A stretch of 64,000 nt of DNA from a virus (taxonomy: Duplodnaviria > Caudoviricetes), in IMG/VR virus record IMGVR_UViG_3300006752_000009. The stretch is one strand, 5' to 3'. Shown here in pieces: positions 593-60,717 of the stretch (positions are counted from its first letter, which is position 1; each line of letters opens with the position of its first letter). The notes under the pieces are model-generated. The model was not told the DNA's origin. It did not search any database and was given only the letters and a program-made list of their open reading frames with translations. Made by a program: the position numbers and the translations under genes.

Positions 593-1318
593 TTATTGTT
601 CTTCCAAGTCAGCAGAATCTGTGTGGAGTATCGCATTAAAAATAGAGTCCTCGTCATACACACCATCTCTGTCCTGTTTGATAGACCTAATAGGAACAGT
701 AAGGTGGAATACAGTTCGCTCTGATTTCTCTTGGTCATCAGCTCGATCAATGTATTCAAGCTCCACATTTAGTTTCACATAAGTGCCTTCTACATCTGAG
801 CTTGATGGATCATCAAAGAACTCAACTTGATCTTCAACATCAACAGCGACATATTGTTTGAGGTCATCCCCATAAGACCCTAGCCATTCAAAGATTTGAG
901 TGTTTACATGATCTCGACCTCTACGGCCCAGCTCAACGAGAGCTTGAGGGGTTTCTCTCCTTCGGGCTGATCTTTCGAGTCTTGCGATCCGACCTTCAAG
1001 CTCATGGATAACATCAGACGCTCTGCGAGTCCTAATGCCACTGAGTCGATCTTCGAGTTCTTGCAGTTGTAAGGCATCAAGATTGACTCTTTGCTCTTGA
1101 GCTTCAAGCCCTTCAAGACGCTCTTGCTCTCGGATCAAAGGCTCAAAGTGCTGAATGTCAGCAATGAAGTCTCTGACCCTTCTGATTTCTTCTTCGACAT
1201 CTTCAAGATCAAGGCTCTTGATATAGCCGACATTAACTTTACTAGCATCGCCATCAAGTTGTTTGTACATTTTGATGAGATTATAGAGGTCGATTCTTTT
1301 ACCTGCGTTTCTTCGCAT
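593..1318 (-). CDS. Hypothetical coiled-coil protein, probable virion/head protein
   Basis: 241 aa, SD AGGAGA; heptad-rich middle region containing RRASDVIHELEGRIARLERSA. Confidence 0.7.
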   Translation of the reverse strand: MRRNAGKRIDLYNLIKMYKQLDGDASKVNVGYIKSLDLEDVEEEIRRVRDFIADIQHFEPLIREQERLEGLEAQEQRVNLDALQLQELEDRLSGIRTRRASDVIHELEGRIARLERSARRRETPQALVELGRRGRDHVNTQIFEWLGSYGDDLKQYVAVDVEDQVEFFDDPSSSDVEGTYVKLNVELEYIDRADDQEKSERTVFHLTVPIRSIKQDRDGVYDEDSIFNAILHTDSADLEEQ

Positions 1319-1329
1319 GATTATTCTCC

Positions 1330-1890
1330 TTAGTATTTGAGATCTAGTCCGAGTTTACCGTCAGTACTTGGAACTTTACAGCAGATACCTACGACAGTGG
1401 GGTCAACACCGAGAGCGGCGTTGAGGTTAGCATCGGGATCATTACACAACAATCCATTTTCGCTAACCTTGAGTGGGTCATTAAGGTTGTAGGTGATAGG
1501 ACCAGCGTTGCGTTGTCCATTGACAGCTAAGGCTGTTGTTTCAAACTCTTTGAAGAGTATCCTCGCTCCACCATTCACGAGAGTGAGTACAGCCGCTCCC
1601 GAAGCAGAAGCTAAAGCACCTGTGTTTTGATATGAGGTGAAGTTCCGATAAGTAGACTGTCTCGCTGAAGCGTAGTTCTCTGAACCGTACAAAACAAACC
1701 CTGCCACATATTTCCCATCAGATTTCTCTACAGTAAACTCGGACACCTTATCATCGTTAGGTACATAATAGACCCAAGTTCCACCCTTCCAACCTGTCCT
1801 ACGCATAATAGGACCTGCTGTGCAGGGAGTCTTGTCACCATTCTTTAAAACATCTATGTCATCATTCGTTAAGTTAAGATCAATAGACAC
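1330..1890 (-). CDS. Putative capsid decoration/cement-type protein
   Basis: 186 aa, GTG start with GGAGG SD; Gly-rich beta-type sequence ending VVGICCKVPS..LGLDL, resembling beta-tulip head decoration proteins. The function is inferred. Confidence 0.4.
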   Translation of the reverse strand: MSIDLNLTNDDIDVLKNGDKTPCTAGPIMRRTGWKGGTWVYYVPNDDKVSEFTVEKSDGKYVAGFVLYGSENYASARQSTYRNFTSYQNTGALASASGAAVLTLVNGGARILFKEFETTALAVNGQRNAGPITYNLNDPLKVSENGLLCNDPDANLNAALGVDPTVVGICCKVPSTDGKLGLDLKY

Positions 1891-2408
1891 TATGCCTTAC
1901 CTCCATTTTCTATCTCACCCTTTTGCTTCTTGTCTTGCAAAACATTTTGGACAGCCCTTGCCTTTTCTTTTTTAGAAAGGTGTCTCTCAACCACTTTTTC
2001 TACTAGACTCTTCTTCACTTCAGATTTGGTCTTATCTTTGGTGATAGGCTTGGATTTAGGTAATTCTTCACGACAGGTCGGCACACCCTTGATTTTTTCT
2101 TCGGTTTTAATGATAAACTGATTGAGTGTACTAAGTTCTTTACCACCAGGCTTCTTAACGATTTCTTCGGGTGGTGGTGGAGCGAGGACAGCTTCGCTTT
2201 CAATGAGCTTGTCGTCCTTCTTCATCTCACCCGATTGGATTGCTTTTTCGGCAGTGTCTACCTTGTTGGTTATTGCTTTTGACTCAGCAAGATTTCTAAC
2301 CGATCTCTTGGTCGGGTTGTCAAAGAAGGCAGACTCGGCAGATTGTGCTTTTTCAAGCTCTGCGACTCTTCTCATTAATGAGGCTATTCTGTATTTAAGG
2401 TTGCTCAT
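1890..2408 (-). CDS. Hypothetical Lys/Glu-rich protein (possible scaffold/head protein)
   Basis: 172 aa, SD AGGAG; N-terminus MSNLKYRIASLMRRVAELEKA; PPPP tract; highly charged. Confidence 0.65.
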   Translation of the reverse strand: MSNLKYRIASLMRRVAELEKAQSAESAFFDNPTKRSVRNLAESKAITNKVDTAEKAIQSGEMKKDDKLIESEAVLAPPPPEEIVKKPGGKELSTLNQFIIKTEEKIKGVPTCREELPKSKPITKDKTKSEVKKSLVEKVVERHLSKKEKARAVQNVLQDKKQKGEIENGGKA

Positions 2409-5951: not shown

Positions 5952-5954
5952 AGC

Positions 5955-5970: not shown

Positions 5971-6023
5971 ATAAGGGTGTAGGTACAGTGCTTACACCCC
6001 CCCACTCTAACAAGGAGATCAAT

Positions 6024-6743: not shown

Positions 6744-6755
6744 GGGAGAGTAGAT

Positions 6756-7313: not shown

Positions 7314-7322
7314 GGAAAGATA

Positions 7323-41434: not shown

Positions 41435-43765
41435 TTAGTCTAAATCCATAAATGCTTGGTAAAGCTCTGTGTCCTCTTTTATTCCCAACGCTTTAAATAG
41501 CTCTTTAGCTTGGTTATTGAATGTTCTCCTCTCGTCCCATTTGAGTCGTACCCTAGCATTCAACGCATCTTGTACTTCCTTCCCCCATTGAGTTAAAACT
41601 TCACCGTTATAAATCTCTTCTTTAACTTCGTTAATCGTAGAGGTAGGGATTGGACCCATTAATGAACGAACAGTATTATCACAATCGACCTTGCCTAGAC
41701 CTTTTGGTACTAGAGGACTAGTTGACTCGGTTAAGCCAAGATCAAGGTAAAAACGATAGCGAACAAGTTCACTAGCAATAGCCCCAAAGAACGCTCTTAA
41801 CTTGTTACCGCCTTTTGCACCTTTACCGACAATTTTTATTGCTTGGTTTCGATCTTTTTGGTTGGCGAGTTTTTCAACCCACATTTGACCGTTCATCTTG
41901 CTTGCTTTTGGTATAATCGGCTTGACTATTTGGTCAATCTTTCTAGCTAGTTCTTCTCTCTCTTTCTCACTCATCATCTTAACGAGATCGTAAAACCCTT
42001 TCTCTTTATTAGGGAGTGTTCCAATAGTGTGAGGTATAAAGTAGGTCAGGCTGTCAACTGTCACCTCTTTTTCAGATCCTGCTACATCGAACTTTAAACT
42101 TCCTCCATTCAACAGAATGGCACACTCTACATACCAAGAGAAAGGACCTGTATCACTAAGGAATAACTTAGAGACATCCATACAGTTATCAGCGAACTTT
42201 TTGATCGCCTTAACTTTATCTTCGTCTATGAATGTCTGTGAGTTTAAGATATATCTCAGACCGACAGGGAGGAGAGGTGCTTGATGTTCTTTGATGGTAT
42301 TTTGAAGGGCTACCATCGCATCTTTGTTGAAATAACGAATAGCGTAAGCCCATTCATCGTCCTTTAGATACAGATTGGAGTCAATCATCCAATGGAATTG
42401 ATCGTCCGAGAACAGCTTAGATAGCTTCTCTAACTCTACGATCTGTAGGTCGAGTTTGATTTTTTCTTCGACTACTTCTTGAAGCTCACCCTCACCCAAG
42501 TCCATACTATCAACTACAGCCTCAGCTCTTTCTTCGGCTGTTTCCACAATCATGTCAGCGGCTTCTTGAGCTTCGATAGAAGGCTCTATATTATTTATGA
42601 CCCAACCACTTTCGATGAGATTTTCTTTCATCTCTTCTTTGAGTTGAAGATCTTCATCAAATTCGCCTGCTTCAAAACGAGAGAGTAGATCAAGACCATC
42701 AGCAGTTGAAAGAGTGAGTTCACCTACTTCGACTAATATGTCTCTATATGCGTCTTTTAAATCCCCATCAAAACGACCTTCAGAGAAATCGTCATATAAA
42801 GTTTCAAAGTATTCGTGTCCAGACTTGAGGTTTCCATTTTTGACGAGTTGGTTGAGAATGACGAGCTTCTCATACAGATAATCCTCATCATCAAACTCAC
42901 CACTAATCAGACGAGCCTTTAGTCTCTCTAACTCTTCGTCAGTCATTTCGTTGAGTTCGTTTTTAGAATAGGTCTCAACCTGTTTTCTTGCGAGTCCTGG
43001 ATTGTCGAAAGTTTCATCCCCTTTGCTTACCTCAAGACCTACAGGTCTGTTAATACCACCTTCATTTTTAACAACACCGAACTCAATCCTTTGTGTCTGC
43101 GTTAAAAACCTCCCCTCATAAGACATGACATTAAAAACACCTTTTTTGATAGCGTCCATCACAGATTCTGCTACGCTGGATGACCTTTGGGTTTTCTTTT
43201 GTATAGACGGGAACACATACGCATCAGATCTCATCGTCCTGCCTTCTTCAACCCGATCAATGACATCAGTGTTGTGCGACATAGACCATGAGGTTGCGGT
43301 GAGCCACAAGTCCTCAAGTGTAGTACCCACATTATAGCGTCTGTTGTTTCCTATGAAATTAGAATAGGTATCGTCTATTCCTATTTTAAGATTATTTTTA
43401 ACCTTTTCATATAGGTCATTAACCATCACTGCGTGAGCATTTTTCCTTCTTAAACCTCTCATGACTTTCGACCCAAATTCAATCGCCTTATCCCCTGGAT
43501 GTGGTTCGAGTATATCAAGGCTTTGTAAACTTGGTTCTCCTAGCTCTTTGAGCTTAAGCAAAGACGCAGTAGCCCAATATGCGAAGATATGGAGAAGGCT
43601 ATTCTCATCTTCCTTGATAAGCCTCAGATCGGCTTGCTTTTTCATGCCAGCCGATCTGATGTAAAGCTCAAGCTCTCTTACAAGTTCTTGAGCAACTTTA
43701 GTCTTGGAGTGCAGATCAGATTTCTTGATCTGATCCAACATCTGTGTCGCTTGTTTTATATTCAT
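41435..43765 (-). CDS. Large hypothetical protein, tandem paralogue 1 (probable internal virion protein)
   Basis: 776 aa; first 49 aa are 44/49 identical to paralogue 2; acidic centre; shared C-terminal ELVRYRFYLD.GLTE...PKGLG. Confidence 0.75.
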   Translation of the reverse strand: MNIKQATQMLDQIKKSDLHSKTKVAQELVRELELYIRSAGMKKQADLRLIKEDENSLLHIFAYWATASLLKLKELGEPSLQSLDILEPHPGDKAIEFGSKVMRGLRRKNAHAVMVNDLYEKVKNNLKIGIDDTYSNFIGNNRRYNVGTTLEDLWLTATSWSMSHNTDVIDRVEEGRTMRSDAYVFPSIQKKTQRSSSVAESVMDAIKKGVFNVMSYEGRFLTQTQRIEFGVVKNEGGINRPVGLEVSKGDETFDNPGLARKQVETYSKNELNEMTDEELERLKARLISGEFDDEDYLYEKLVILNQLVKNGNLKSGHEYFETLYDDFSEGRFDGDLKDAYRDILVEVGELTLSTADGLDLLSRFEAGEFDEDLQLKEEMKENLIESGWVINNIEPSIEAQEAADMIVETAEERAEAVVDSMDLGEGELQEVVEEKIKLDLQIVELEKLSKLFSDDQFHWMIDSNLYLKDDEWAYAIRYFNKDAMVALQNTIKEHQAPLLPVGLRYILNSQTFIDEDKVKAIKKFADNCMDVSKLFLSDTGPFSWYVECAILLNGGSLKFDVAGSEKEVTVDSLTYFIPHTIGTLPNKEKGFYDLVKMMSEKEREELARKIDQIVKPIIPKASKMNGQMWVEKLANQKDRNQAIKIVGKGAKGGNKLRAFFGAIASELVRYRFYLDLGLTESTSPLVPKGLGKVDCDNTVRSLMGPIPTSTINEVKEEIYNGEVLTQWGKEVQDALNARVRLKWDERRTFNNQAKELFKALGIKEDTELYQAFMDLD

Positions 43766-43826: not shown

Positions 43827-46217
43827 TTAACCTAACTGAACAAATGCCTCATATAGCTCAGTACCTTCCTCGATGCCGAACTCTTTGAATACCTTTTTAA
43901 CTAAGGTGTTTAAGTCCGATTTCTTCTTGATCAAGACAGACTCTCTCGCACTTATAGCACTTTGTACTTCATTAGTCCAGTGCGGTAAAATGAGCTGATC
44001 ATAACTTTCGCTCTTAACAGCGTTTAGTTCTTTTGTAGGGATGGGTCCGATGAGGTATAGGACACGACTATCGCAGTCATTATTACCTAGACCCTTTGGT
44101 AAGTTAGTTCCCTCAGTCAGACCAATGTCGAGATAGAAACGATAACGAACAAGCTCACTAGCGATACCACTGTAGAAGCCTTTAAGTTTACCACCACTGT
44201 TTGTGACGGTTTTATGAGCTTGCCCTGCTTTCGCTGGTATAGTTTTGTACTTTGGATTATTGTATATAGTAATGATGTTCTCCACAAAGTCAGACATCTT
44301 ATAATCCAAACCGTTTGGCCTATACGGAGCAATAAGATCTTCAAGGTCTTTCGTAATCTTTGCAACCTCAGCGTCAGATGCCACAGAAAGTGCTTCAACC
44401 AATCCTTTATAAACGGATCTCGTGACTTTGAAGAACCTTAATCCCTCGACTTCAACTTTGAAGGTCTTTCCACCTGCTTTTAAAGAGACAGACCCACCGT
44501 TTAAGACGATTGCTAACTCAAGATACCAACCTAGAGGTCCTTTATTGCCACCGATAATCTTTTCAACGACACCTTGATCCATACATTGGTCGGCAAACTC
44601 TTTGATCGCTACCACCTTTTTTTTGTCAGCAAAGACAGCAGGGTTAAAGATGTGCTTCAAACCTAGAGGTAAAAGAGGCTCTTGATGCTCTTCGATTGTG
44701 TCTTGGATAGCTCTCAAGGCTTGAGGGTCGGACTCTCTAAGAGCTAAAGCCCACTCTGTGTCATCAAGATACAGGTTAGCATCGAGCATCCAATGAAAGC
44801 CCTCTTCGGTGAACATCTTTGACAGCTTTTTCATTTGGTCTAACTTTAGGTTGACCTTAGCGAGATCAGCAATAGCTTCTCCGAGCTTACCATCGGGTAA
44901 ACTCATACCACTTACAGCGACTTCTGCCATCTCTTCAGCTTGATCTTCGATCATCTGAACAGCTTGATCGGCATCAGTAGAGACTTCGATGTTTTCAATC
45001 AACCAACCATCATTAATGAGGTCATACTCTGCATCAGTACGATCAAGCTCATCGAGTTCACCCGAATGATAGCTTCTGATAAGCTCATCAAGTTCATCGG
45101 TGACTGGGTTCCCTGTCAGTTCAAGAAGCTCTCTAGCGAGAGCATTTGACTCGACACTATCATATACACCATTAAAGAAATTTGGCTTCAAGGAGTCTGA
45201 GATCAGAGCGTCATTCTTATTAATATGGTCAGATAACAAAAGCCCCTGTAGCCCCTTGAGCCACTTTAGATGTTGGTTATCAAGACTTCCATCAGTTAAC
45301 TTTCCTTCGATTTCTTCCAAAGTCTCATCAGACAACCCTTGTTGTTCCATGTACTTTTGGCTGTCGGACACACCGAGTAAGTTTTCAAGATGTCCCTCAG
45401 CAGAGAGTTGATCAAGTCTGCTGTATTCTTCGCCAGAAGATGATTGACCCTCTGTGGACTCTTGTCTTATTTTCTTTCCGTCTACGAGAGCTATTCCTAA
45501 TGCCCTTCTCTCCTCAAGACTTAGGTAGCGTCCTTTAGAAGCCATCGCACTGAATACACCCTTACGAATAGCTTTCATAACTCTCTCAGCGATAGAGCTT
45601 CCCCCCTCGACCTTTTCCTCGATCCTTTTCCAAGGGGTTATATATGTTTCCCTACTTTCACTAGACTTAGGTATTCCACTTTTGCCTGTGACAGCCCACA
45701 TCGTAGATCTCTGCCAAAGATCGTCAAGAATGTCGCTTCTTAGTCGCCTAAATTCTTTGTTATTTTTAACAAATTGATTGAAGGTGATGTTGATGCTTTT
45801 AGAGAGAGCTGGTTTGATTTGCTCATAGAGACTGTTCAAGAAGTTTGCGTATCTTGCAACGCTTGCTTGTCGCCTTCTCATTCGACTTCTAAAACCACCT
45901 CCACCTCCACCAAGTTGGTTGAGGATCTTTGTCCCATACTCTGTGGGGGTATCAGAACCAACAGGAGGGATAGTCATCCCTTGTAACTCTGGTTCACCTG
46001 TCATCTGAGAAAGAGCGGCACTCGCCCAATAGAAGAAGATCTTCTTAAGATCTCCATCACTTTGAAGGTACAGCCTCAGATCAGCTTGCTTTTTCATTCC
46101 AGCCGATTTGATATACAGTTCAAGCTCTCTTACAAGCTCTTGAGCAACTTTAGTCTTGTTGTGGAGGTTAGATTTCTTGATCTGATTTAACATCTGATTT
46201 GCTTGTTTTATATTCAT
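43827..46217 (-). CDS. Large hypothetical protein, tandem paralogue 2 (probable internal virion protein)
   Basis: 796 aa; same architecture as 41435..43765, plus a GGGGGG-RSRMRRRQA insert. Confidence 0.75.
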   Translation of the reverse strand: MNIKQANQMLNQIKKSNLHNKTKVAQELVRELELYIKSAGMKKQADLRLYLQSDGDLKKIFFYWASAALSQMTGEPELQGMTIPPVGSDTPTEYGTKILNQLGGGGGGFRSRMRRRQASVARYANFLNSLYEQIKPALSKSINITFNQFVKNNKEFRRLRSDILDDLWQRSTMWAVTGKSGIPKSSESRETYITPWKRIEEKVEGGSSIAERVMKAIRKGVFSAMASKGRYLSLEERRALGIALVDGKKIRQESTEGQSSSGEEYSRLDQLSAEGHLENLLGVSDSQKYMEQQGLSDETLEEIEGKLTDGSLDNQHLKWLKGLQGLLLSDHINKNDALISDSLKPNFFNGVYDSVESNALARELLELTGNPVTDELDELIRSYHSGELDELDRTDAEYDLINDGWLIENIEVSTDADQAVQMIEDQAEEMAEVAVSGMSLPDGKLGEAIADLAKVNLKLDQMKKLSKMFTEEGFHWMLDANLYLDDTEWALALRESDPQALRAIQDTIEEHQEPLLPLGLKHIFNPAVFADKKKVVAIKEFADQCMDQGVVEKIIGGNKGPLGWYLELAIVLNGGSVSLKAGGKTFKVEVEGLRFFKVTRSVYKGLVEALSVASDAEVAKITKDLEDLIAPYRPNGLDYKMSDFVENIITIYNNPKYKTIPAKAGQAHKTVTNSGGKLKGFYSGIASELVRYRFYLDIGLTEGTNLPKGLGNNDCDSRVLYLIGPIPTKELNAVKSESYDQLILPHWTNEVQSAISARESVLIKKKSDLNTLVKKVFKEFGIEEGTELYEAFVQLG

Positions 46218-46265
46218 ATCTATCTCGCTTTCTGATGGGAATGAAGTTTACAGAAGATACCGACT

Positions 46266-46280
46266 ATAAACGAACTATAA
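46266..46280 (-). promoter_or_regulatory. Class-2 promoter motif TTATAGTTCGTTTAT
   Basis: 48 nt upstream of ATG 46217. Confidence 0.55.
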
Positions 46281-46309
46281 ATATCTGAAAGAGGATAAAA
46301 GTCTTGTCC

Positions 46310-46380
46310 TGTCGGGTTGTGTGTGATAAGGTAGGGGCTGACTTGGATAGATGTCCAATAAGTCAACCTTTAACCCGATA
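46310..46380 (+). other. Extended multi-stem hairpin in the 5' leader of a sigma-like gene
   Basis: Nested pairs tgtcgggtt/aacccgata, aaggt/acctt, tgac/gtca, ttggat/gtccaa. Confidence 0.45.
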
Positions 46381-46394
46381 ACTCGGAGACACAA

Positions 46395-47267
46395 ATGAAT
46401 AGAATAACTAAGGGTTTACAGTACCCTATTAGGAGTGGTGCGAGTACCCACTTCGACATGATGTTTGGAGTGTCAGCAGACGACCACTTCGACTTGATCT
46501 TCTCATATTTACAACCCAAAAAGGCAAAGCCTGTTGAGGTAGTGCGTAATGAGACTGAAAATTGGCTCTATGACGCACGATGTGAGAACTATGAGCGTGT
46601 GCTTGAGATGGTTCAGAGAAGAACCCCTTACAACAAGCGTTTCACGCTACCAGAGGATCAGATCGTAAGCTACTTCCATAGCTTCCTTACCGAACACTTC
46701 ATCGAGAAAAATCAGCTCAAAAAAGAGCTTGATAAAGGCAAGACGGTGAAGCCATCGGTGGTCTATGAGTGGTTCTTGCAGTATGTGGTGCGTGAAAAGT
46801 ACCAAGAAGGTCAAGATGCTCTCCAACGGACTCGTGGTGCGAGGACTCAATCAGAGGTGAATAAAATCAAGGCTTACGAGACAAAGCAGACTACGACCCC
46901 TTATGCTCCTGTCCATCATATCCAAAACCTTGAGTCAGAAGGTTGGCAGGTTGCTCAAGTGGTTTCCAAGACCGACTCTGAAACAGGTGTGCAAGTGGGA
47001 GAACCCGACTACTATGTAGATGGTGATACTCACAGTAGCGTTGAGGAGCGTTCGGAAAATGCGTACATGAAAGAGCTGTTGCTTGATCGCTTTGGTAAAG
47101 ACAAACTGAATATGTACTACTCGCTGTGGCTTGAGCTTCGCTATGATGAATACGAGAGCAAGAGGATGTGGGCTTCGGCTCGTAAGGTGTCATATAAAGT
47201 CTTGAATGCTCAAATCACTCAAGTCCGAGAGGTCTTTAAGGATAACCTAGAAGCCTTCGGTCATTGA
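46395..47267 (+). CDS. Divergent sigma-like putative transcription factor
   Basis: EDQIVSYFHSFLTE (region-2-like), VYEWFLQYVVREKYQEG, C-terminal HTH-like SKRMWASARKVSYKVLNAQITQVRE; paralogue of 6756. Confidence 0.5.
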   Translation: MNRITKGLQYPIRSGASTHFDMMFGVSADDHFDLIFSYLQPKKAKPVEVVRNETENWLYDARCENYERVLEMVQRRTPYNKRFTLPEDQIVSYFHSFLTEHFIEKNQLKKELDKGKTVKPSVVYEWFLQYVVREKYQEGQDALQRTRGARTQSEVNKIKAYETKQTTTPYAPVHHIQNLESEGWQVAQVVSKTDSETGVQVGEPDYYVDGDTHSSVEERSENAYMKELLLDRFGKDKLNMYYSLWLELRYDEYESKRMWASARKVSYKVLNAQITQVREVFKDNLEAFGH

Positions 47268-47286
47268 CGCTCTGAGAGCGTATAGG

Positions 47287-47658
47287 CTATCGCTTACCAC
47301 CATCGTAAGCGACAGCATGACCCATACGGATCATCTCATCATTAAGAGACTCACCTAGCTCATTCATGTCCTCTTCATAAGCCCATAGGACACCGAGCCA
47401 TCGACCAAACTTACCTTTTTTAACGGTATGAACGACAACCGTTTTACCCTCGATGCGAGATTTAAGGTACTCTTTGGCTTCATATCCTCTAGCCTTTTCA
47501 TCTAGGTCTTTGGTTCTGATCTCTGGTGTGTTGATCCCCACCATACGAACCTTGACTCTCGCAAAGTGTTTCATGCCTTGATCTATCATGAGGGTGACGG
47601 TATCTCCGTCATATACTGATAAAACTTCTGCTTTGTAGTGATATAAATTAAGCGACAT
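47287..47658 (-). CDS. Thermonuclease (staphylococcal nuclease-like)
   Basis: VYDGDTV, VRMVGINTPE, GKFGRWLG, LNDEMIRMGHA. Confidence 0.93.
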   Translation of the reverse strand: MSLNLYHYKAEVLSVYDGDTVTLMIDQGMKHFARVKVRMVGINTPEIRTKDLDEKARGYEAKEYLKSRIEGKTVVVHTVKKGKFGRWLGVLWAYEEDMNELGESLNDEMIRMGHAVAYDGGKR

Positions 47659-47667
47659 ATATTCCTC

Positions 47668-48036
47668 CTACGGTCTTAAGCCTAAATCTAACAGGGTCTT
47701 GTAAACGACTTTATTGACTTCTTTAAGGTCATCAGTCTTTTTAATGACCCGACCATTGACCTCTACGATTAAGTTTTTGTAGTCATATCCAGATCCACTG
47801 CTAGTGAAACCACTGATAGAAATCTTAGTCTTTGAGGCTTCAACTTTGATAACCTTCTCTCCCTTTCGGTCGAGGACACTAGTTACTTTGTGTTGCCCTT
47901 TCTTGAACATCCACTGTAGCTGTTTCTCAAATCGGCTGAGATCTTGCCACCCAATGTGGTTACTTAGTAGTCCAAAGAGCTTTGCTTCCATGTACCTAGA
48001 AGCGACTCTTTTACTAGAATTTTGATTACTCATCAT
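47668..48036 (-). CDS. Hypothetical protein with RVASRY leader
   Basis: MMSNQNSSKRVASRYMEAKLFGLLS; 122 aa. Confidence 0.7.
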   Translation of the reverse strand: MMSNQNSSKRVASRYMEAKLFGLLSNHIGWQDLSRFEKQLQWMFKKGQHKVTSVLDRKGEKVIKVEASKTKISISGFTSSGSGYDYKNLIVEVNGRVIKKTDDLKEVNKVVYKTLLDLGLRP

Positions 48037-48586
48037 CTGCCTCTTTCTTAGGTTCGGGTGTATCTTCTACACCTAGTGATTTCTTGACCTTTGCTTTGAA
48101 CATCTTGATTACGAACGCATTGATTGCACCAGCACAAGCACCCATATACACATCAATCATCATAAATGGCTTTGATAAGGTATAGGCGATCCCTGCTCCT
48201 GTTAGGACTGCAAAGAGTCTTATTACAGCGTCTGATTTCTCATTGCAGGTTTTGAAGATGAAAGGCTTAATGATCTGAGTCAGAGCGAGACTCAAGATAG
48301 CCGCTACCACTACAAGATAAGCATGACCTACAAAGACATCTTGCATCGTTGGTCTAGTTTCTGATTTCAAATCAATCGACTCTGCTATGTGTTTACAGGA
48401 AACACCACTTTCAGTGATCTCACATTCTTGGTTTTCTGATCCACACAGAAGTTCATTCCCCTCGATGATTTCGCAGAGGTCAGCTCCTTCTTCCCCTTTA
48501 CTACAGAGGATTGTATGAAGATCAACGAACTGACAGTTATCTGGTAGATTAACTAGTGGCTCACTTATTGGGATATACTTTTCCAT
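48026..48586 (-). CDS. Putative holin (3 TM helices) with a Cys-repeat N-terminal domain
   Basis: TMs AYLVVVAAILSLALTQII, IRLFAVLTGAGIAYTL, VYMGACAGAINAFVI; charged C-terminal tail; Cys at 18, 28, 38, 48, 55, 64. Confidence 0.55.
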   Translation of the reverse strand: MEKYIPISEPLVNLPDNCQFVDLHTILCSKGEEGADLCEIIEGNELLCGSENQECEITESGVSCKHIAESIDLKSETRPTMQDVFVGHAYLVVVAAILSLALTQIIKPFIFKTCNEKSDAVIRLFAVLTGAGIAYTLSKPFMMIDVYMGACAGAINAFVIKMFKAKVKKSLGVEDTPEPKKEADDE

Positions 48587-48593
48587 GTTTTTA

Positions 48594-48622
48594 CCTCGCT
48601 TCGATTTTTCAATAAAGCGAGG
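48594..48622 (-). promoter_or_regulatory. RBS-occluding hairpin on the holin-like gene
   Basis: CCUCGCUU / AAGCGAGG, a perfect 8-bp stem containing the GAGG SD. Confidence 0.7.
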
Positions 48623-48624
48623 CG

Positions 48625-48639
48625 ATAAAGAAACTATTA
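48625..48639 (-). promoter_or_regulatory. Class-2 promoter motif TAATAGTTTCTTTAT
   Basis: 2 nt before the hairpin 5' arm; 38 nt upstream of ATG 48586. Confidence 0.6.
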
Positions 48640-48646
48640 AGCTCTC

Positions 48647-49180
48647 TTACAAATGAGGGGTTCTGTCTATTACGATGACATCACCCTCTGAGTGATACTT
48701 TTTAGCGAATGACTTCCATACCCTTAGAGCCTTATCAGAGGTAGACTTTTTGTGGCAGTAGTTAGGCATGAACAGCAAAGGCAACCTACCATGTTTAAGG
48801 AACACTTCTTTGACCACCTCAACATACATTTGAACTCCACACCTCTGGCCTTGTAGGTCTGGGTGGAGATAAGAATTGACAACCTCTACAACAAGAACCA
48901 CAGGTTCATCTTTACTGCTATCATATCGAAACATCTCGTCCTCAAACCAATACTCTTCGGATAACTTTTCAATGTCATCTGCACAAGCAAAGTGTCCTCT
49001 ACCCATCTCCTCAAGAGTGTAAGTGCCTACATGGGCTTCACAGTGTCCTCTGTATTCACCATCGACTCTTAACTCAACACTAACTTTACCACCATCGCTA
49101 GACACAACTTCGATAGTGATGTTGCCCTTTTGGTATTTAGCTTTCATGTAGCGACTAGCGACTCTTTGATAAGGCTTCAT
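48647..49180 (-). CDS. GNAT-fold (acetyltransferase-like) protein with RVASRY leader
   Basis: MKPYQRVASRYMKA; YLHPDLQGQRCGVQMY is GNAT motif-A-like; TSDKALRVWKSF. Confidence 0.5.
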   Translation of the reverse strand: MKPYQRVASRYMKAKYQKGNITIEVVSSDGGKVSVELRVDGEYRGHCEAHVGTYTLEEMGRGHFACADDIEKLSEEYWFEDEMFRYDSSKDEPVVLVVEVVNSYLHPDLQGQRCGVQMYVEVVKEVFLKHGRLPLLFMPNYCHKKSTSDKALRVWKSFAKKYHSEGDVIVIDRTPHL

Positions 49181-50082
49181 ACTGGTTGTCCCTGTTCGTT
49201 TACTAAACCTTTAGTGTAGAGGGCATATAACTGTATGCCAACAGCAGGAACTAAGATAGCGTTCCAACCGATTGATAGAGACTTAGCGAGCCAACCACCA
49301 GGTATGCCTGGGAATAAAAGACTTACGATAAATCCAATCCCACTTTCGGGTAGACTTTCAAGTAAGTCCGTCCACGAGATCATGCCTAGAAATCCTTTTA
49401 TCAAGTCTGAGATCTTCCAACTGATCTCTGTAACATTGATCCATATGACCCAATAGAGATATGCTTTAGCAGGCATCGTAATGAGCTTCAGCAAAGGGTG
49501 CTTCTCTAAAAAGTTATCTATCCATTCCGACATATTTTTTGCTCTGCCGACCACAGGTGTGATCGTCTTTGACAACCATTTACCTAGTTCACCTGTCTTT
49601 CCTCCATGCTTTTCAAGTACGCTTTCAATAATGGAAGTGAAGGTAGGAGCGTTAGATGCGTATAGGAACAGAAAGTGAATGATCTTACTGTCTTTCTTCA
49701 TCTTCTTCTTTAGATTACCCCACCATCTCGCACCCTCGTCTAAGAGGTTTTGAAACTTCTTCGATAGTTCAAAGTAGAGCTTTGCAGGGTTCGTTGATGT
49801 GATCCCTAAAACCTCTTTGAACTTTTCCCAAAGTTTAGGAGCTTTTTGAAACGCTTGGTACAGCTCTCTTAGCTTCTTACCTAGACCTTTGATGATCGCT
49901 GTTTTGTTGTGAGCTTGTCGGAGCATACCCTCGCCAAACACGCTCAATACTCGGACATCTATCTCACGAGTGATTGTGCTTGAGACTCTAGTGTTGGGGC
50001 TGTTTTGGATCGCCCACATTGACGCTCTTAATGAAACATTTCTATGGTAATGTCGAGTAGCGACTCTCTGATATGGCTTCAT
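49177..50082 (-). CDS. Hypothetical helical protein with RVATRH leader and hydrophobic C-terminus
   Basis: MKPYQRVATRHY...LRQAHNKTA; C-terminal GIGFIVSLLFPGIPGGWLA. Confidence 0.7.
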   Translation of the reverse strand: MKPYQRVATRHYHRNVSLRASMWAIQNSPNTRVSSTITREIDVRVLSVFGEGMLRQAHNKTAIIKGLGKKLRELYQAFQKAPKLWEKFKEVLGITSTNPAKLYFELSKKFQNLLDEGARWWGNLKKKMKKDSKIIHFLFLYASNAPTFTSIIESVLEKHGGKTGELGKWLSKTITPVVGRAKNMSEWIDNFLEKHPLLKLITMPAKAYLYWVIWINVTEISWKISDLIKGFLGMISWTDLLESLPESGIGFIVSLLFPGIPGGWLAKSLSIGWNAILVPAVGIQLYALYTKGLVNEQGQPV

Positions 50083-50117
50083 ATTTATACTCCTTTAATA
50101 AGTACAATAGGATGCTC

Positions 50118-50132
50118 ATAAATAAGTTATTG
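50118..50132 (-). promoter_or_regulatory. Class-2 promoter motif CAATAACTTATTTAT
   Basis: 35 nt upstream of ATG 50082. Confidence 0.55.
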
Positions 50133-50145
50133 AAAGGAGTCGGTC

Positions 50146-50520
50146 ATGGGAGCAGGTGTAATGCTATTATGTGGAAACAAAACCCTCATAATGAAGAGGG
50201 ACCACTACAAACACGATAAATGGTCGGGTTATTGGAACTTTCCAGGAGGTCAAGGAGAGCCAAATGAAACGACCTATCAGACAGCTCTAAGAGAGACTGA
50301 AGAAGAGACAGGCATCACACCCGATCAATATAAAGTTGTAGATCATGTAGAGGACAAGATTTACACGATGTATGTCGGGGTGTGTAAGGAAGAGATCGTA
50401 CCTGTTTTAGATCACGAGCATACGGAGTGGGAGTGGATAGTCATCTCTAAGATACCTAGTATGACTCGTGAGATGCACCCCAAAGATTGGCGAGGGTTTA
50501 AGAAGTATTATCGGCTTTAG
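50146..50520 (+). CDS. NUDIX hydrolase
   Basis: Nudix box GGQGEPNETTYQTALRETEEETGI; WNFPGG; DHEHTEWEW. Confidence 0.92.
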   Translation: MGAGVMLLCGNKTLIMKRDHYKHDKWSGYWNFPGGQGEPNETTYQTALRETEEETGITPDQYKVVDHVEDKIYTMYVGVCKEEIVPVLDHEHTEWEWIVISKIPSMTREMHPKDWRGFKKYYRL

Positions 50521-50523
50521 AAA

Positions 50524-51621
50524 TCACCAGACTTGAAAGTGAACACCTAAAGACCAAGTGTTCGACCCATCAGTTCCGTAAACCCAACCAATACCAGGAG
50601 CGATGTTGAGGTTTTTACCCATGATGTAAGGATGCCATGTACCCATCAATCCTAGATACTGATTGGACTCGGTTAGAGAAAAGTTAGCACCTAAACGATA
50701 CTGACCTTTAACAAAGTTGACGAAACTCCCCCCTATAGATAGCCCAAACTCCCCCCCTTGATAAGTTGACCCTACAAGTAAGCTCGGCTCGAACATCTTT
50801 AGCGTTAACCCTAAACCACCTGCGGGTACTTGGGGTATATAGATGAGTTGAGGATCAAGATTGGGATCACCAGAATACATTTCGGACTCAAGACCCTCTA
50901 TATTAATAAACTTTCCTTGATCATCAAAGTACCCACCATAAATGTGTATGCCTTGGTTCTGTACAGCACCACTACCTAAACGAGATTGGTCTTCGCCATA
51001 ACTAATCGCTACTACTTTAAACGCTAAGTTGAAGTCTACACCCGAACCTTCACCAGTCCAAAGATTTCTACTTGTAAACGAGTAAACAGGTTTACCATGT
51101 AAACGGAAAGGTGATTCCCATGTAAACTTGAAAGGTTGACACCTTTCGTCTGTTCGGTTCTCACACCACTGTTGATCTTGTGTACTTACACCTCTCCAAT
51201 CTTGAGGTGGTGGGGTTGTGGGTTTTTCTCTGTCTGTGAAGTCTCCGATGCGTGTTACACCTGCTTCTACCCTTGACTCCATACGAACAAATCTTCGACT
51301 AATCGCATTGATTTTCGCTCCTGTCTCAGAGGTGTATCTGTCTATAGCCTGTTGTGTTCTTTGATCAAGACCACTAATGATTTCTGACGCTCTTTGTTCA
51401 AGCGTAGCTCGATCAACCATCTGAGACTGCACAGTTCCTAGTTTGGTATTTATCGCCGCAATTTTCGTAGCGTTATCATTAAGAACTCCATTTAGCTGAT
51501 CTTGGATCGTAGCGTCCATCTGTTGCATTTTGTAGACAGACCAAGCGTTGCCCCCTACAGAAACCAAGAACAGGCTCAATAGAGCGTAAATACCATATTT
51601 TAGGTTCGCCAACTCAACCAT
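50524..51621 (-). CDS. Envelope-spanning protein: N-terminal TM, coiled coil, C-terminal amphipathic beta-strands (spanin-like)
   Basis: YGIYALLSLFLVSVGGNAW; heptads at about aa 30-125; about six alternating beta-strands ending WSLGVHFQVW. Confidence 0.55.
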   Translation of the reverse strand: MVELANLKYGIYALLSLFLVSVGGNAWSVYKMQQMDATIQDQLNGVLNDNATKIAAINTKLGTVQSQMVDRATLEQRASEIISGLDQRTQQAIDRYTSETGAKINAISRRFVRMESRVEAGVTRIGDFTDREKPTTPPPQDWRGVSTQDQQWCENRTDERCQPFKFTWESPFRLHGKPVYSFTSRNLWTGEGSGVDFNLAFKVVAISYGEDQSRLGSGAVQNQGIHIYGGYFDDQGKFINIEGLESEMYSGDPNLDPQLIYIPQVPAGGLGLTLKMFEPSLLVGSTYQGGEFGLSIGGSFVNFVKGQYRLGANFSLTESNQYLGLMGTWHPYIMGKNLNIAPGIGWVYGTDGSNTWSLGVHFQVW

Positions 51622-51654
51622 AGTAAATCTCCTTCGTTTAGATGGAGATACTAT
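51620..51654 (-). promoter_or_regulatory. RBS/start-occluding hairpin
   Basis: AUAGU-AUCUCC ... GGAGAU-uu-ACUAU(G): buries GGAG and the AU of AUG. Confidence 0.6.
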
Positions 51655-51662
51655 ACCATGTC

Positions 51663-51995
51663 TTAATGAGCAAACACTCGTAGAACTGTTGTCCCCTCAA
51701 TAAGATAGAGTCCACCTAGTCGTAGATTTTGTGTAGTACGCTGAAGGCTGTGAACCATATCTTTGAAGGTATTCATCTCTTTTGGGTCTACTTTTAGTAC
51801 AATAAAACCACCATCGTGAATACCATCGTATGCAGACATAGTGGTCTTTTCCACAGAGATGAGATGAGGGTATGTGTGATCTTCAATGTAGTCTTGAGCA
51901 TGGAGTCCAAGCTCGTTGAGTTTTTCTTCAAAAGAAGCGTCCTGCATCGTGTTTACTTTTCTCGATCTACTCTCAAAGCGATTTATCATAGACAC
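51663..51995 (-). CDS. Hypothetical protein
   Basis: 110 aa. Confidence 0.6.
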   Translation of the reverse strand: MSMINRFESRSRKVNTMQDASFEEKLNELGLHAQDYIEDHTYPHLISVEKTTMSAYDGIHDGGFIVLKVDPKEMNTFKDMVHSLQRTTQNLRLGGLYLIEGTTVLRVFAH

Positions 51996-51996
51996 C

Positions 51997-52188
51997 CTAT
52001 TCTTTATCTTCTACGACAATGATCTCTCGTGTCGTCTTACCTGTGTTGTAGTCGATGTTCTCTCGAACCCGAAAGACAGGTTCGGGGGCAGGCTGTGGTG
52101 GTCGGCTGTAGTAGCGAACTTCATTTCGCCACCGACCACCAACTTCGACCCATACAGTCTCTCCATTTTCCATTCGTTTGTAAGGCAT
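51997..52188 (-). CDS. Small hypothetical protein (putative early operon)
   Basis: Start moved to ATG 52188 (SD AAAGGAG); MPYKRMENGETVWVEVGGRW. Confidence 0.6.
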   Translation of the reverse strand: MPYKRMENGETVWVEVGGRWRNEVRYYSRPPQPAPEPVFRVRENIDYNTGKTTREIIVVEDKE

Positions 52189-52896: not shown

Positions 52897-52956
52897 GCTT
52901 TGCCTTTTCTCATATAATAAGAGGATGCAAGCTGTACTTATAAGGAGGTGCGACAT

Positions 52957-55686
52957 ATGTTTGCCGATATGCTTGAGTCATTAAGACGACCAAATATACA
53001 ACCCAAGTTGTGGATGAAAGATTGCGAGTTAATCTTAGGCACAAAGGAAAACCTAGACCAATGTATTGATGAGTGTATCAACAGCGTTGCGTATGGGCTT
53101 GACCTTGAGACAACAGGTCTTGATAATCGTGTGTTCAACGGACGCACAAGAGATACGATTGTAGGGGTCTGCTTGTCAGCCCATAAGGATAAGGGGTACT
53201 ATTTCCCTGTTGGTCATCAAGAGGGTGTGGAACATAACATTCCTTGGAGATTGATGTATCCTGCACTTGAGCGTCTGCTTGACCTCTCTGTGAAAGCAGA
53301 GCCTATATTCCACAACGCCGCTTTTGACCAAGAGTTTTTGGAGTTCAACGAGTACAAGTCGGGTCTTGGTGAGGAGCGTTGGGACTCATTTGAATGGCAC
53401 GACACCTATATCATTCAGTATCTCTTGAACCCTCGTGAAAAAGGTGGTCGAGGACTAAAGCATTTAACTAATGCCCACCTTGAGCGAGAGATGATTGAGC
53501 TATCAGATCTTATGCCCGATGCTCCCGACAAGAACTACTCCAAACTTGATGTGAGTTGGGAACCATGTGTTTGGTATGCCGCTAGTGATGCAATGTGTAC
53601 GCTTGGACTATGGGAAGTACTTTATAAGAAGTACACCGAAGCTAAAGAACACACTAACTCGATGTATAAGTTAGAGCGTATGTGTCTACTTTCAACTCGT
53701 TGGATGCACAGAAATCGTGTCTACATTGATCGAGACACAGCCTTAAAGTATAGCCAACAGGGGCAGAAGCTATGGTTCGACTCTCTGATTGATGTCTATG
53801 ATGGAGCAAAAGAAATCTTAGGTCGAGACATTACCCCTAACTATGTTCGAGTCCTTAAAGGAGATCTGAAGGGAGAAAACAAGTTTAACCACATGGAAGT
53901 GGAGGGGATGAGCTATAAGACTCGTGTAGACGAAGCTCGTAAAGAAGCCTCTCGACTTTACCCCGATGAAAAGGGAGTAGTCACTAAGGCTGTGAAGATT
54001 ATCGGTAAGAGTGTAGGTACAGAGGAGATTGAGTTTCCACTTACTTATGACATCCTATCCCCTCAAAAGCTCGGCTTGTTATTTAGAGAGTTGAGTGTTC
54101 CAGGTCTTAAGGCGAGTGAAAAATCGGGTCAGGTCGTTACTTCCAAAGACATTCTTGAAGAGGTCATTGAGAAGGCTTCTGATGACTTTCCATTTATGGC
54201 TAAGGTTAAGACCTTTCGTGAGCTTGGGAAGGCAATGGGTCAGTATCTCATTCCATTTGTAGAAGATGTTGGACCAGATGGGACTCTCAAGCCTAAGTTT
54301 GATCAGTTTGCCGCTGACACAGGTCGTTTTTCATGTAAGACGAATAGTAAGCCTTGGAAAGTTAAAGATGGAGGGTGTCGTGTTCCCTTTCAAGGCATAC
54401 CTGCTACCTATGACCCAAATAAACCCGAAGCTGTTGCTAAGATGCGTTCTTGTGTGGCTGTGCGTGATGACGATTGGTGGTTAGCGGCCATTGATTACGC
54501 AGGTGTAGAGCTTCGGCTAGTTACGAACTTGAGTCTTGAGCCTAAGTGGATCAAGGCTTTCTTTGAATGTTCAGAATGTGGCACAGCTTACCCACAAGAA
54601 ATTCAAGAAGACGGATTCGCCAAAGCACCTCCATCTAACTGCGTGAACTGTGGGTCTGATAAGATTGGAGACTTACATACGATCACAGCAGTTGCGTTTT
54701 ATGGCGAGGGAGCTAAGAAGCGTGATGATTGGAAAGCGTTAAGAGGTAATGGTAAGGGTTGCAACTTTGCTTTGTCTTATGGTGGTACAGGTAAGGCTGT
54801 TCAGCGTACTATTGGTTGTTCAGCCGAAGAAGCAGATGAGAAGTTCAAGAAGTTTACATCAACTTATAGTGAACTGACTAAATGGTGGTCTAAGCAACAC
54901 AACTTTGGTCGTAAGCATGGATATGTAAAGACAGGTATGGGTCGTGTTCAACCATTACCCGACATCAAGTCTGATGACTTTAGGTTTAAATCCAAAGATG
55001 AGCGTAAGGCTGTTAATGGTCCAGTACAGGGTACGAGTGCTGATGTCACCAAGTTGGCGATGAGCTTCATCTACCAAGAGACTAAGAAGCGTGGTTGGCA
55101 AGATAAACTGATGATGATCTTGACCGTCCATGACGAAATCGTGTTCGAGATCCATAAGTCGATCTTGAAAGAGGCGATTGATATGATCTCCGAGATGATG
55201 ACTCGCAACAAAGTGATTAAGCGTCTAGGTTGGCGAGTGCCTTTACTTGTCGATGTTGAGCTTGGTAAGGATTGGACTGTTCCTTTTGATGTGAAAGATG
55301 TGATTGCAGGAGAAGCAGGGGATAAGGTCATTAACGCTAAGTACAAGTGCAAGGATTGTGGTGAAAAGACTCCTCGTGACCCTAAACCGACTGCGTGTAT
55401 GCACTGTGGTTCGACTAACATTAAAATTGATTACAAAGATGACTTCATTGCCAAGATCAAGAAGCAGACGGAACAACTTTATGCCGACTATGGGGTAAAT
55501 CCCGATGAAGTTGTCAAAGAGGTGGTTGTAGAAGACCCTGTTGAGAAATCGTCCGATAAGCCCACCTTTTGTGTTGAGGGACTGACGGAAGAAATCGCAA
55601 AAAACCTGTCCGATTGGATTAAATCGCAAGATGGTGAGTATGATGTGGTATATGAAGGACGGAGTATTATTGCATTATTAGAATGA
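52957..55686 (+). CDS. polA: Family A DNA polymerase with 3'-5' exonuclease and two zinc ribbons
   Basis: Start at ATG 52957 (AAGGAGG); Exo I DLETTG, Exo II HNAAFD, Exo III YAASDA; TGRFS; motif A IDYAGVELR, motif B RGNGKGCNFALSYG, motif C VHDEIVFE. Confidence 0.95.
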   Translation: MFADMLESLRRPNIQPKLWMKDCELILGTKENLDQCIDECINSVAYGLDLETTGLDNRVFNGRTRDTIVGVCLSAHKDKGYYFPVGHQEGVEHNIPWRLMYPALERLLDLSVKAEPIFHNAAFDQEFLEFNEYKSGLGEERWDSFEWHDTYIIQYLLNPREKGGRGLKHLTNAHLEREMIELSDLMPDAPDKNYSKLDVSWEPCVWYAASDAMCTLGLWEVLYKKYTEAKEHTNSMYKLERMCLLSTRWMHRNRVYIDRDTALKYSQQGQKLWFDSLIDVYDGAKEILGRDITPNYVRVLKGDLKGENKFNHMEVEGMSYKTRVDEARKEASRLYPDEKGVVTKAVKIIGKSVGTEEIEFPLTYDILSPQKLGLLFRELSVPGLKASEKSGQVVTSKDILEEVIEKASDDFPFMAKVKTFRELGKAMGQYLIPFVEDVGPDGTLKPKFDQFAADTGRFSCKTNSKPWKVKDGGCRVPFQGIPATYDPNKPEAVAKMRSCVAVRDDDWWLAAIDYAGVELRLVTNLSLEPKWIKAFFECSECGTAYPQEIQEDGFAKAPPSNCVNCGSDKIGDLHTITAVAFYGEGAKKRDDWKALRGNGKGCNFALSYGGTGKAVQRTIGCSAEEADEKFKKFTSTYSELTKWWSKQHNFGRKHGYVKTGMGRVQPLPDIKSDDFRFKSKDERKAVNGPVQGTSADVTKLAMSFIYQETKKRGWQDKLMMILTVHDEIVFEIHKSILKEAIDMISEMMTRNKVIKRLGWRVPLLVDVELGKDWTVPFDVKDVIAGEAGDKVINAKYKCKDCGEKTPRDPKPTACMHCGSTNIKIDYKDDFIAKIKKQTEQLYADYGVNPDEVVKEVVVEDPVEKSSDKPTFCVEGLTEEIAKNLSDWIKSQDGEYDVVYEGRSIIALLE

Positions 55687-57484: not shown

Positions 57485-57526
57485 GAAACCCTCGATTGCC
57501 CCAGTGGTGGTCGGGGGTTTTTCTTT
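57485..57526 (+). terminator. Rho-independent terminator
   Basis: GAAACCCTCGATT...GGTCGGGGGTTTTTCTTT, a stem with G-U pairs and a U tail, between convergent genes. Confidence 0.75.
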
Positions 57527-60210: not shown

Positions 60211-60225
60211 TTGTAGTTCCTTTAT
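60211..60225 (+). promoter_or_regulatory. Class-2 promoter motif TTGTAGTTCCTTTAT
   Basis: 36 nt upstream of ATG 60262; followed by a 6-bp CTTTAG/CTAAAG stem (60232-60256) overlapping the SD. Confidence 0.55.
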
Positions 60226-60261: not shown

Positions 60262-60717
60262 ATGATGAGAAATCATAACAAGATGGCAAGTCGAGTTGCA
60301 TATCGCTACATGAAACAAGCAGGTCTATTGAGTAAGATCGTAGATTTCTTTACCGAGAGTCCTCGTGAGAAAGAGAAGAAGCCTGTGTTTGATGTCGCTA
60401 AAGTCTGGGTGACAGCAGGTATCTATGGGGCTACTATGGGTTGGGTATCAAAGACTCTTAAGCTCAAAGGCAAAGATACTGCGATCATTGACTACAAAGG
60501 GGATAATCTCAAGCTCTCCATCTCACAAGAACGAGTTAGGGGGATGAAGGACAATGGGGGCATCAAAGGAGACTTCTTTGTAGTGATTTCTTTGACTGGT
60601 GTTGATAAGAACATACCTAAGAGTCAGTTAGATAAAGTCTTAGCAGGTATTCTTAGAGAGGTTCGGCTTGAACCCGACTTTACCGAAACTCCTGTTGAAC
60701 ACCCCAATATGCGTTAG
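60262..60717 (+). CDS. Hypothetical protein with RVAYRY leader
   Basis: Start moved to ATG 60262; MMRNHNKMASRVAYRYMKQAGLLSK. Confidence 0.7.
   Translation: MMRNHNKMASRVAYRYMKQAGLLSKIVDFFTESPREKEKKPVFDVAKVWVTAGIYGATMGWVSKTLKLKGKDTAIIDYKGDNLKLSISQERVRGMKDNGGIKGDFFVVISLTGVDKNIPKSQLDKVLAGILREVRLEPDFTETPVEHPNMR

Follow-up and report, generated by a model that had tools for sequence, protein, structure and literature searches.

A portable RVAxRY peptide on unrelated proteins of a huge myophage clade and its candidate role in loading the phage head

The DNA analysed here, a stretch of 64,000 nucleotides from IMG/VR record IMGVR_UViG_3300006752_000009 (the window), is part of the genome of an uncultured huge myophage, whose own contig is approximately 348 kb long, and contains four genes with a short peptide of the form RVAxR(Y/H) near their starts. 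A first-pass annotation of the window had read this peptide as an N-terminal leader shared by otherwise unrelated late proteins, perhaps one that directs them to the capsid, and the four core instances it reported, in genes p301, p177, p122 and p144/p151, are all present (Table 1), within 6–19 residues of the start in each case. Comparison with related genomes indicates that the peptide is a portable module, real and selected, that tags unrelated proteins. The element is predicted to be an amphipathic helix of approximately 10–12 residues with the consensus [RK]-V-A-x-[RK]-Y-[ML]-x-x-A, in which V, A, Y, M and A occupy one face and two basic residues lie beside it.

Two whole-genome comparators were used: a complete relative of 375,691 bp from IMG/VR (G001), with positions 207992–279949 of which the window is collinear at 72–92% nucleotide identity, and the 485-kb uncultured phage LR745208.1, which is the nearest record by protein (46% identity in PolA and 72% in the portal protein). 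By portal, the next nearest are Tunturiibacter phage Tunturi_5 (37% identity) and then Bacillus phage G (27%); megablast of window positions 46000–52000 against the phage collection gave no match at the DNA level. The tag is confined to one clade of huge myophages, to which phage G is related.

The tagged genes and the portability of the tag

Pfam and PHROGs searches of the four tagged proteins and of the untagged p186 returned no families. The body of p177 is homologous to a leaderless GNAT paralogue (E 3e-15), which itself matches Pfam Acetyltransf_1 at 2e-5; in an AF2 model this body is confident (pTM 0.79), the leader helix (residues 3–16) has pLDDT <50, and the top PDB fold matches are all GNAT, but weak. 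The C-terminal half of p301 is hydrophobic and looks, by eye, membrane-spanning. This gene is present in the relatives L001 and L002 and absent from G001, and look-ups of p301 in the atlas gave sub-threshold leads only, including clusters with phiKZ_IP on a minority of members. For p122 the atlas likewise gave only a sub-threshold lead, to a MutL C-terminal-like fold; its tag and domain together form the C-terminus of a 948-residue protein in G001 and L001 that contains two CCA-type nucleotidyltransferase domains. The likely start of p144/p151, at 60262, stands behind an AAGGA ribosome-binding site, and the G001 homologue keeps the leader and is truncated. The statement that the bodies downstream are unrelated is mostly borne out, as with the GNAT-like and membrane-like proteins, but p122 and p144 share a GLLS extension beside the tag, and nothing else besides the tag itself (E 0.02).

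In G001 at least 13 carriers were found, counting matches to the DNA pattern and slightly relaxed copies, on proteins that differ in fold (Table 1). That the peptide is an N-terminal leader is accurate for all four window copies and incomplete for the relatives, in which a search for the motif also found internal and C-terminal copies. An indel at 57526–57549 of the window, opposite G001 271122–272431, leaves the window without the C-terminally tagged 414-residue protein of G001.

The N-terminal edge of the tag is sharp. Three versions of p122, stand-alone in the window, fused in G001 and a third in L063, have nothing in common upstream and can be aligned exactly from the Arg codon of RVA; since the edge of homology falls at that codon in three contexts, the MKPYQ that precedes it in some genes is a subfamily prefix and not part of the tag. 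This prefix is found on two of the four window carriers and is absent from p122, p144 and all internal and C-terminal copies. At a locus between a NUDIX gene and a nuclease gene, cargo genes have been swapped among relatives of 80–90% identity while the tag has been kept (Table 1).

The occurrence of the tag is far from random. RVA.R[YH] is found four times in the 71 open reading frames (ORFs) of the window (20,957 residues), compared with a mean of 0.0135 in 2000 shuffles (maximum 1). A degenerate DNA pattern for RVAxRY matches G001 nine times and controls never, and a scan of G001 with a position-specific scoring matrix gave 12 matches against 0.25 in shuffled sequence, a figure that is partly circular; the same scan of LR745208.1, an independent relative, gave five against 0.35. 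The copies in LR745208.1 are fewer and looser, for example AKRVATRILRAMA and SLRVAGRYLSAMD at N-termini and SPIKVAFRHLLQGA on a homologue of the ADP-ribosyltransferase (ART) that is tagged in G001, and the region around its portal gene has no VAxRY copy. The form of the tag varies with lineage, with RVAxRYM here and RVAxR[IF]L or RVAxAY[IV] in others.

Selection acts on the peptide rather than on the DNA, to judge by codon usage and by the homologues of p177. Twenty non-redundant matches to a relaxed pattern, drawn from four related sequences, employ between them every one of the four Val and four Ala codons and five of those for Arg; codon choice at the conserved residues is thus saturated, and conservation is at the level of protein. 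Furthermore, p177 has 37 database homologues, most of which match it at 10–13 of the first 13 positions, including those whose bodies have fallen to 28–38% identity. A search of IMG/VR for DNA encoding MKPYQRVA returned the same narrow lineage and two chance internal matches (L062, L067). A nucleotide-level element, such as a regulatory RNA or a recombination site, was also considered and is rejected, given the saturation of synonymous sites and the presence of further copies of the motif internally and at C-termini.

Table 1. Coordinates and description of tagged genes, core tag codons, promoter-like boxes and other features of the window, with tag carriers in relatives
Feature	Sequence	Position	Strand	Description
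p301	window	49177..50082	-	begins MKPYQRVATRHY; leader MKPYQRVATRHYHRNVSLRAS; first gene of p301-p177 operon
p301 core tag codons	window	50050..50067	-	RVATRH
p177	window	48647..49180	-	leader MKPYQRVASRYMKA, then GNAT-like body; start overlaps p301 stop (ATGA)
p177 core tag codons	window	49148..49165	-	RVASRY
p186	window	48026..48586	-	untagged; co-transcribed upstream of p122; hydrophobic segments, membrane-spanning look by eye
p122	window	47668..48036	-	leader MMSNQNSSKRVASRYMEA, then small alpha/beta domain
p122 core tag codons	window	47992..48009	-	RVASRY
p144/p151	window	60262..60717	+	begins MMRNHNKMASRVAYRYMKQA; leader MMRNHNKMASRVAYRYMKQAGLLS; small protein with one hydrophobic segment
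p144 core tag codons	window	60292..60309	+	RVAYRY
Late-type promoter-like box	window	50118..50129	-	TAACTTATTTAT; upstream of p301(-p177)
Promoter-like box	window	48625..48636	-	TAGTTTCTTTAT; upstream of p186-p122
Promoter-like box	window	60214..60225	+	TAGTTCCTTTAT; upstream of p144
Second leader, internal copy	window	593..1318	-	RRASDVIHELEGRIARLERSA at residue 103; outside RVAxRY family
Second leader, divergent member	window	1890..2408	-	N-terminus RIASLMRRVAELEKAQS; TAGTTTATTTAT box at 2443; outside RVAxRY family
Baseplate_J protein	window	37066-40338		
gp25-like sheath initiator	window	40335-41375		
Family-A DNA polymerase	window	52948-55686	+	
N-terminal carrier	G001			358-residue protein, ART-PolyVal (PF18760), 48.6 bits vs cut-off 31.2
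N-terminal carriers	G001			two GNAT-like proteins
N-terminal carrier	G001			HAD-like protein
N-terminal carriers	G001			p144 homologue; 207-residue protein
Internal carrier	G001			948-residue protein with two CCA-type nucleotidyltransferase domains; tag precedes p122-type C-terminal domain
Internal carrier	G001			P0001, 631 residues; tag precedes p177-type GNAT-like domain; HELVH motif in N-terminal part
Internal carrier	G001			P0002, 423 residues; tail very basic
Internal carrier	G001			p1171, 1171 residues
C-terminal carrier	G001			414-residue protein, hydrophobic segments (by eye); end RVASRYMSLAH-stop
C-terminal carrier	G001			p344, 344 residues; end RVARSYLNLRG-stop
NUDIX-nuclease locus cargo	window			p301 and p177
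NUDIX-nuclease locus cargo	L001			p301, two tagged GNAT-like and one untagged GNAT
NUDIX-nuclease locus cargo	G001			two tagged and one untagged

Regulation, head module and possible origin of the helix

The carriers had been placed at or downstream of one class of promoter-like motif (class 2), and this holds: a TAGTNNNTTTAT-type box lies approximately 35–57 nt upstream of the start codons of all three tagged units of the window and also of its gp25-like, 776-residue and 796-residue genes, the boxes upstream of baseplate genes being at 41419, 43811 and 46266. A TA(G/A)NNNNTTTAT box is found 48–57 nt upstream of nearly all tagged genes. In G001 it stands before p344, and hence before the head operon, before P0001, and before almost all of the tagged genes or the operons that contain them; the exact box is present at 49 of 425 G001 ORFs overall. 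This shared box indicates that the tag genes are co-regulated with late or structural genes.

The head operon of G001 runs in the order p344, p1171, maturation protease, scaffold, decoration protein and a major capsid protein (MCP) of 292 residues; the protease, of 482 residues, belongs to phrog_18299 (5e-14) and the MCP to phrog_2522 (2e-51). Its first two genes both carry the tag, p344 at the C-terminus and p1171 internally, and neither matched a family in Pfam and PHROG searches. Elsewhere in the clade the last 190 residues of p1171 have as their counterpart a stand-alone gene, the p193 family, which has 461 database homologues and is always located just upstream of the protease. Its layout is invariant, with a KOW/SH3-like barrel, a linker, a helix RVAxA[FY][VI]KKALYW and a Zn ribbon; the R and V of the helix are present in at least 90% of 44 aligned homologues, and its G001 version, RVASKYMKRAIYW, is essentially the tag consensus. 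The AF2 model of p193 gives pLDDT of approximately 90 for the barrel and Zn ribbon and approximately 55 for the helix (residues 115–128), which is packed on neither domain, and Foldseek searches with this model found weak KOW/Tudor-like barrel matches only (E ≥0.02). It is likely, on these comparisons, that this clade-conserved helix of a core head-module protein is the prototype of the tag, and the simplest history would be one in which a core head protein supplied a partner-binding helix that was then copied to further proteins in the lineage of the window.

Tagged genes of G001 are also found at the portal gene (phrog_16240, 4e-32), which is followed directly by P0001 and P0002. Behind them stands P0003 (G001 69426–71129, minus strand), with an extremely basic N-terminus and a Dps/ferritin-like C-terminal DNA-binding domain (phrog_3636, 4e-12), which may be an internal head DNA-binding protein.

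Several features of the head region were recorded in passing. The MCP (PF25209; G001 48887–49765, minus strand) has 2097 database matches, the best 120 of which are all at least 87% identical, and the genomes carrying it range from 43% to 62% in G+C content. Several clade members have a protease gene of 766–1108 residues with Hint/intein and homing-endonuclease domains (L070–L074, genes at approximately 3800–7600). The scaffold (G001 50555–52096, minus strand; L017:10555–12096) has an EF-hand calcium-binding motif (PF13202, 1e-7), repeated acidic helices of AELEADD type and a conserved N-terminal helical domain. A dehydrogenase-like gene (phrog_9582; L013 4804–5670/6657–7286, G001 64804–67286) appears to be split by an HNH/homing-endonuclease ORF.

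Possible processing sites accompany the tag. The pattern [KR]xA[SG] occurs 206 times in the G001 proteome, compared with 116 ± 9 in shuffles, and over the first 30 residues its density is above three times that of the remainder; the scaffold and protease are among the proteins of highest density in both G001 and LR745208.1. Sites of this type precede internal tags (KKQAS-RVASKYM, KKKASAS-RVALRY and ARAAS-RVASRY), many tags end in x-A (YMKA-K, YMKA-S, YMKQA-G), and four lineages have kept a KKA[SA] site at the border of the scaffold C-terminal domain. Cleavage after Ala at the flanks of the tag is therefore plausible, and we infer that the sites would suit a protease that accepts Ala at P1. Herpesvirus assemblin is such an enzyme. 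It is homologous to prohead proteases (PMC9026906).

A second and larger leader family is distinct from RVAxRY. In G001, 30 ORFs carry, mostly at the N-terminus, a 22-residue leader M[RK][RK]xASE[VI]I..LE.R[IV]ARLE[KR]QA[SG], also written MRRSASEIIRxLExRIARLERQAS and coiled-coil-like in appearance; examples (L015–L032) are at 191203–191916, 195282–195608 and 45829–46200, all on the minus strand. Among its N-terminal carriers 17 of 26 stand behind the same promoter box, and LR745208.1 has no copy matching the pattern used. Some N-termini of the window had earlier been grouped with RVAxRY as looser relatives (genes starting at 2408, 1318, 43765, 46217 and 521). They do not have the same motif: those at 1318 and 2408 belong to the second leader, and those at 43765 and 46217 are a pair of paralogues. 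The latter (41435–43765 and 43827–46217, both minus strand) are adjacent genes of 776 and 796 residues beside the baseplate genes, each behind a TAGTTTATTTAT box, and approximately 50 N-terminal residues are near-identical between them (MNIKQA..QIKKS.LH.KTKVAQELVRELE...MKKQADLRL).

Elsewhere, the window encodes a NUDIX protein and several proteins of 1100–2000 residues, and its DNA polymerase has a C-terminal Zn-ribbon or HypA-like segment (residues 795–829). Adjoining the tagged genes is a 365-residue protein (50524–51621, minus strand) without a family match, which has an N-terminal hydrophobic segment and a coiled-coil-like stretch; its C-terminal half is rich in Gly and aromatic residues and its end, HFQVW, resembles the signature of an outer-membrane beta-barrel, and it could be related to lysis or the envelope.

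Head targeting and alternative explanations

Because the tag is portable and selected, is co-regulated with late genes, is carried by effector domains and has portal and protease as neighbours, head targeting is, on circumstantial evidence, the best available reading, and we put the chances at about even that it is a docking or targeting helix that loads cargo into the prohead, possibly with trimming at the flanking x-Ala. The helix would dock its carrier onto the same prohead component as the p193 helix, for which the scaffold, the inner capsid surface, the protease and the portal are candidates. Enzymes, DNA-binding proteins and membrane-active proteins would thereby be enclosed in the head, the maturation protease might then trim them at flanking x-Ala sites, and the cargo would leave with the DNA at infection. 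The types of cargo are like those of known packaged effectors (ART-PolyVal, GNAT-like, HAD-like and CCA-type nucleotidyltransferase domains, basic tails), and the Dps-like protein adjoins the tagged genes near the portal.

Several points weigh against head targeting. The phage is uncultured; the ART gene lacks a promoter box of its own and appears to lie inside an operon; and apparent membrane proteins, such as p301 and the 414-residue protein of G001, would be unusual cargo for a head, although some membrane insertion is possible for ejection proteins. In the p193 family a conserved YW...DR.Y[RK] block comes after the helix, which could there simply belong to a fold left unpacked by AF2. The C-terminal tags end 3–5 residues after the core, so that cleavage behind the tag cannot be a general rule. 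In LR745208.1 the simple DNA pattern RVAxxY is not enriched (11 matches against 15 in controls), and with copies so few and weak, the large-scale spread of the tag is lineage-specific. A complex prediction pairing the G001 scaffold (513 residues) with residues 2–41 of the tagged ART scored 0.23, against a mark of 0.34, with both chains poorly folded and without controls, a result that bears on binding in neither direction.

Internal copies are found at domain boundaries, after K/S/A-rich linkers and KxAS-type sites, which would also fit a motif that is only a recognition or cleavage signal, used by the maturation protease or by the portal-adjacent HExxH protein to cut polyproteins and having no role in targeting. 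The enrichment of [KR]xA[SG] and its density in scaffold and protease would suit such a signal. Assemblin cleaves between Ala and Ser, and the tag tail Y-M-K-A resembles its release site, Y-[VL]-[KQ]-A before Ser. P0001, moreover, has the HELVH motif, and for polyvalent proteins cutting by zincin-like peptidases embedded in them has been proposed (PMC5512222). With 10 residues, the conserved helical core is, however, long for a cleavage site, the spacing from RY to Ala varies, and the p193 helix is conserved throughout the clade without a conserved KxAS site before it; cutting at the extreme C-terminal copies (RVASRYMSLAH-stop, RVARSYLNLRG-stop) would release almost nothing, and we hold a signal for cleavage alone to be quite unlikely. 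It is also unlikely, in our judgement, that the motif docks a partner other than the capsid (a host chaperone, ClpX-type unfoldase, RNA polymerase or ribosome, the membrane, or a phage-built compartment) and so brings about shared localisation, regulation or timed turnover. Here the oldest and most conserved copy argues otherwise, being in a head-module gene beside the protease, as do the further copies in proteins adjoining portal and protease. Position independence and a detached, amphipathic, basic helix would fit any short linear docking motif, and p301, p144 and the 414-residue protein of G001 have hydrophobic segments that look membrane-spanning by eye, while the window copies are near a possible lysis region (p186 and the 365-residue HFQVW protein); yet V, A, Y, M and A form a weak hydrophobic face for binding to membranes, the strictness of R-V-A and R-Y points to a specific protein partner, and degradation tags would be unexpected inside proteins.

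A functionless peptide, left by common descent or by cassette recombination at a 5' block of promoter, ribosome-binding site and first codons, after which the bodies diverged, would account for the genuine paralogues among the carriers (p177, p165, p179 and the C-terminal domain of P0001) and for the MKPYQ prefix and promoter box that travel together in several genes. We consider this very improbable: synonymous sites are saturated and the residues fixed, the motif is on unrelated folds and at C-termini, and in three contexts the Arg codon is the precise point of junction. The leader, besides, is approximately 80–100% identical in most homologues, including those with bodies down to 28%, and one GNAT paralogue is entirely without it.

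Head targeting has a wider form, possible although doubtful, in which two orthogonal and position-free ‘zip codes’, RVAxRYM on approximately 13 proteins and MRRSASEIIRxLExRIARLERQAS on approximately 30, would load approximately one tenth of the proteome into the virion, RVAxRY doing so by mimicry of a core head helix. If true, a tailed phage would be loading cargo in the manner of an encapsulin, by a code reusable for packaging proteins of choice. The selection of proteins for the heads of huge phages is largely unknown outside T4, and a sharply bounded tag on ART, GNAT-like, CCA-type nucleotidyltransferase and HAD-like proteins would provide a testable rule for predicting the injected proteome of a megaphage clade. 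The tag may also offer a route to counter-defence and take-over factors, and is a candidate small tag for very large capsids; the MCP being nearly invariant, a receptor on the MCP would make it widely transferable within the clade.

Comparison with known packaging systems

The capsid-targeting sequence (CTS) of T4 is a propeptide of 10–19 residues, cut off by gp21 once it has brought the internal proteins (IPs), and probably Alt, to the core of the prohead (PMC9026906); Alt itself is an ART that T4 packages (PMC9026906, PMC5512222). The tag is like the CTS of IPI, IPII, IPIII and Alt in being a short peptide on otherwise unrelated proteins, one of them an ART, and in that the carrier genes occupy a locus of variable content. 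It is unlike the CTS in that it may be N-terminal, internal or C-terminal and looks to have been copied from the helix of a core head protein. The two sequences are unrelated, as the first-pass annotation had maintained: the T4 peptide is MKTYQEFIAE, and only the prefix MK.YQ is common to both, in two of the four window carriers and outside the conserved core. Conservation begins with the Arg of RVA and not at MKPYQ, so that the likeness of MKPYQ to MKTYQ is probably coincidental. The proteases also differ, since complete G001 has no match to the T4-type Peptidase_S77 protease (PF03420), its protease is of phrog_18299 type, and no L/I-x-E site follows the tags.

In the C-terminal signal of the HK97 protease and the cargo-loading peptides of encapsulins, a short terminal peptide that can be moved between proteins suffices to dock cargo in an HK97-fold shell. 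The tag similarly can stand at either terminus and appears separate from the fold of its cargo, as detached helices of low pLDDT in AF2 models. The HK97 signal is the tail of one protein and encapsulin peptides are extended C-terminal motifs, whereas here a helical motif is carried by at least 13 proteins of a tailed phage.

The giant phages phiKZ, 201phi2-1 and SPN3US also load many head proteins, whose propeptides the prohead protease removes and for which a role in targeting is suspected (PMC10052503). Unlike the tag, these propeptides are mostly 111–254 residues long and do not share one short motif; they are cleaved after Glu and belong to another phage lineage. Polyvalent proteins and MuF-fused effectors (Iyer et al. 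2017) combine portal-adjacent ART, peptidase and nucleotidyltransferase domains and are predicted to be packaged, processed and injected (PMC5512222). Here the likeness is in the tagged ART of G001, which matches Pfam ART-PolyVal, and in the effector domains encoded beside the portal. P0001, directly downstream of the portal gene, has an HELVH motif and no Pfam or PHROG peptidase match. The difference is that effectors here are often separate genes with a common tag, fused neither into a giant polypeptide nor to MuF. The multi-omics paper on phage G makes no mention of shared leaders or propeptides. The best-supported view is that the tag would be a variant of the capsid-targeting or cargo-loading peptide, distinct from the T4 CTS in sequence, position, origin and type of protease.

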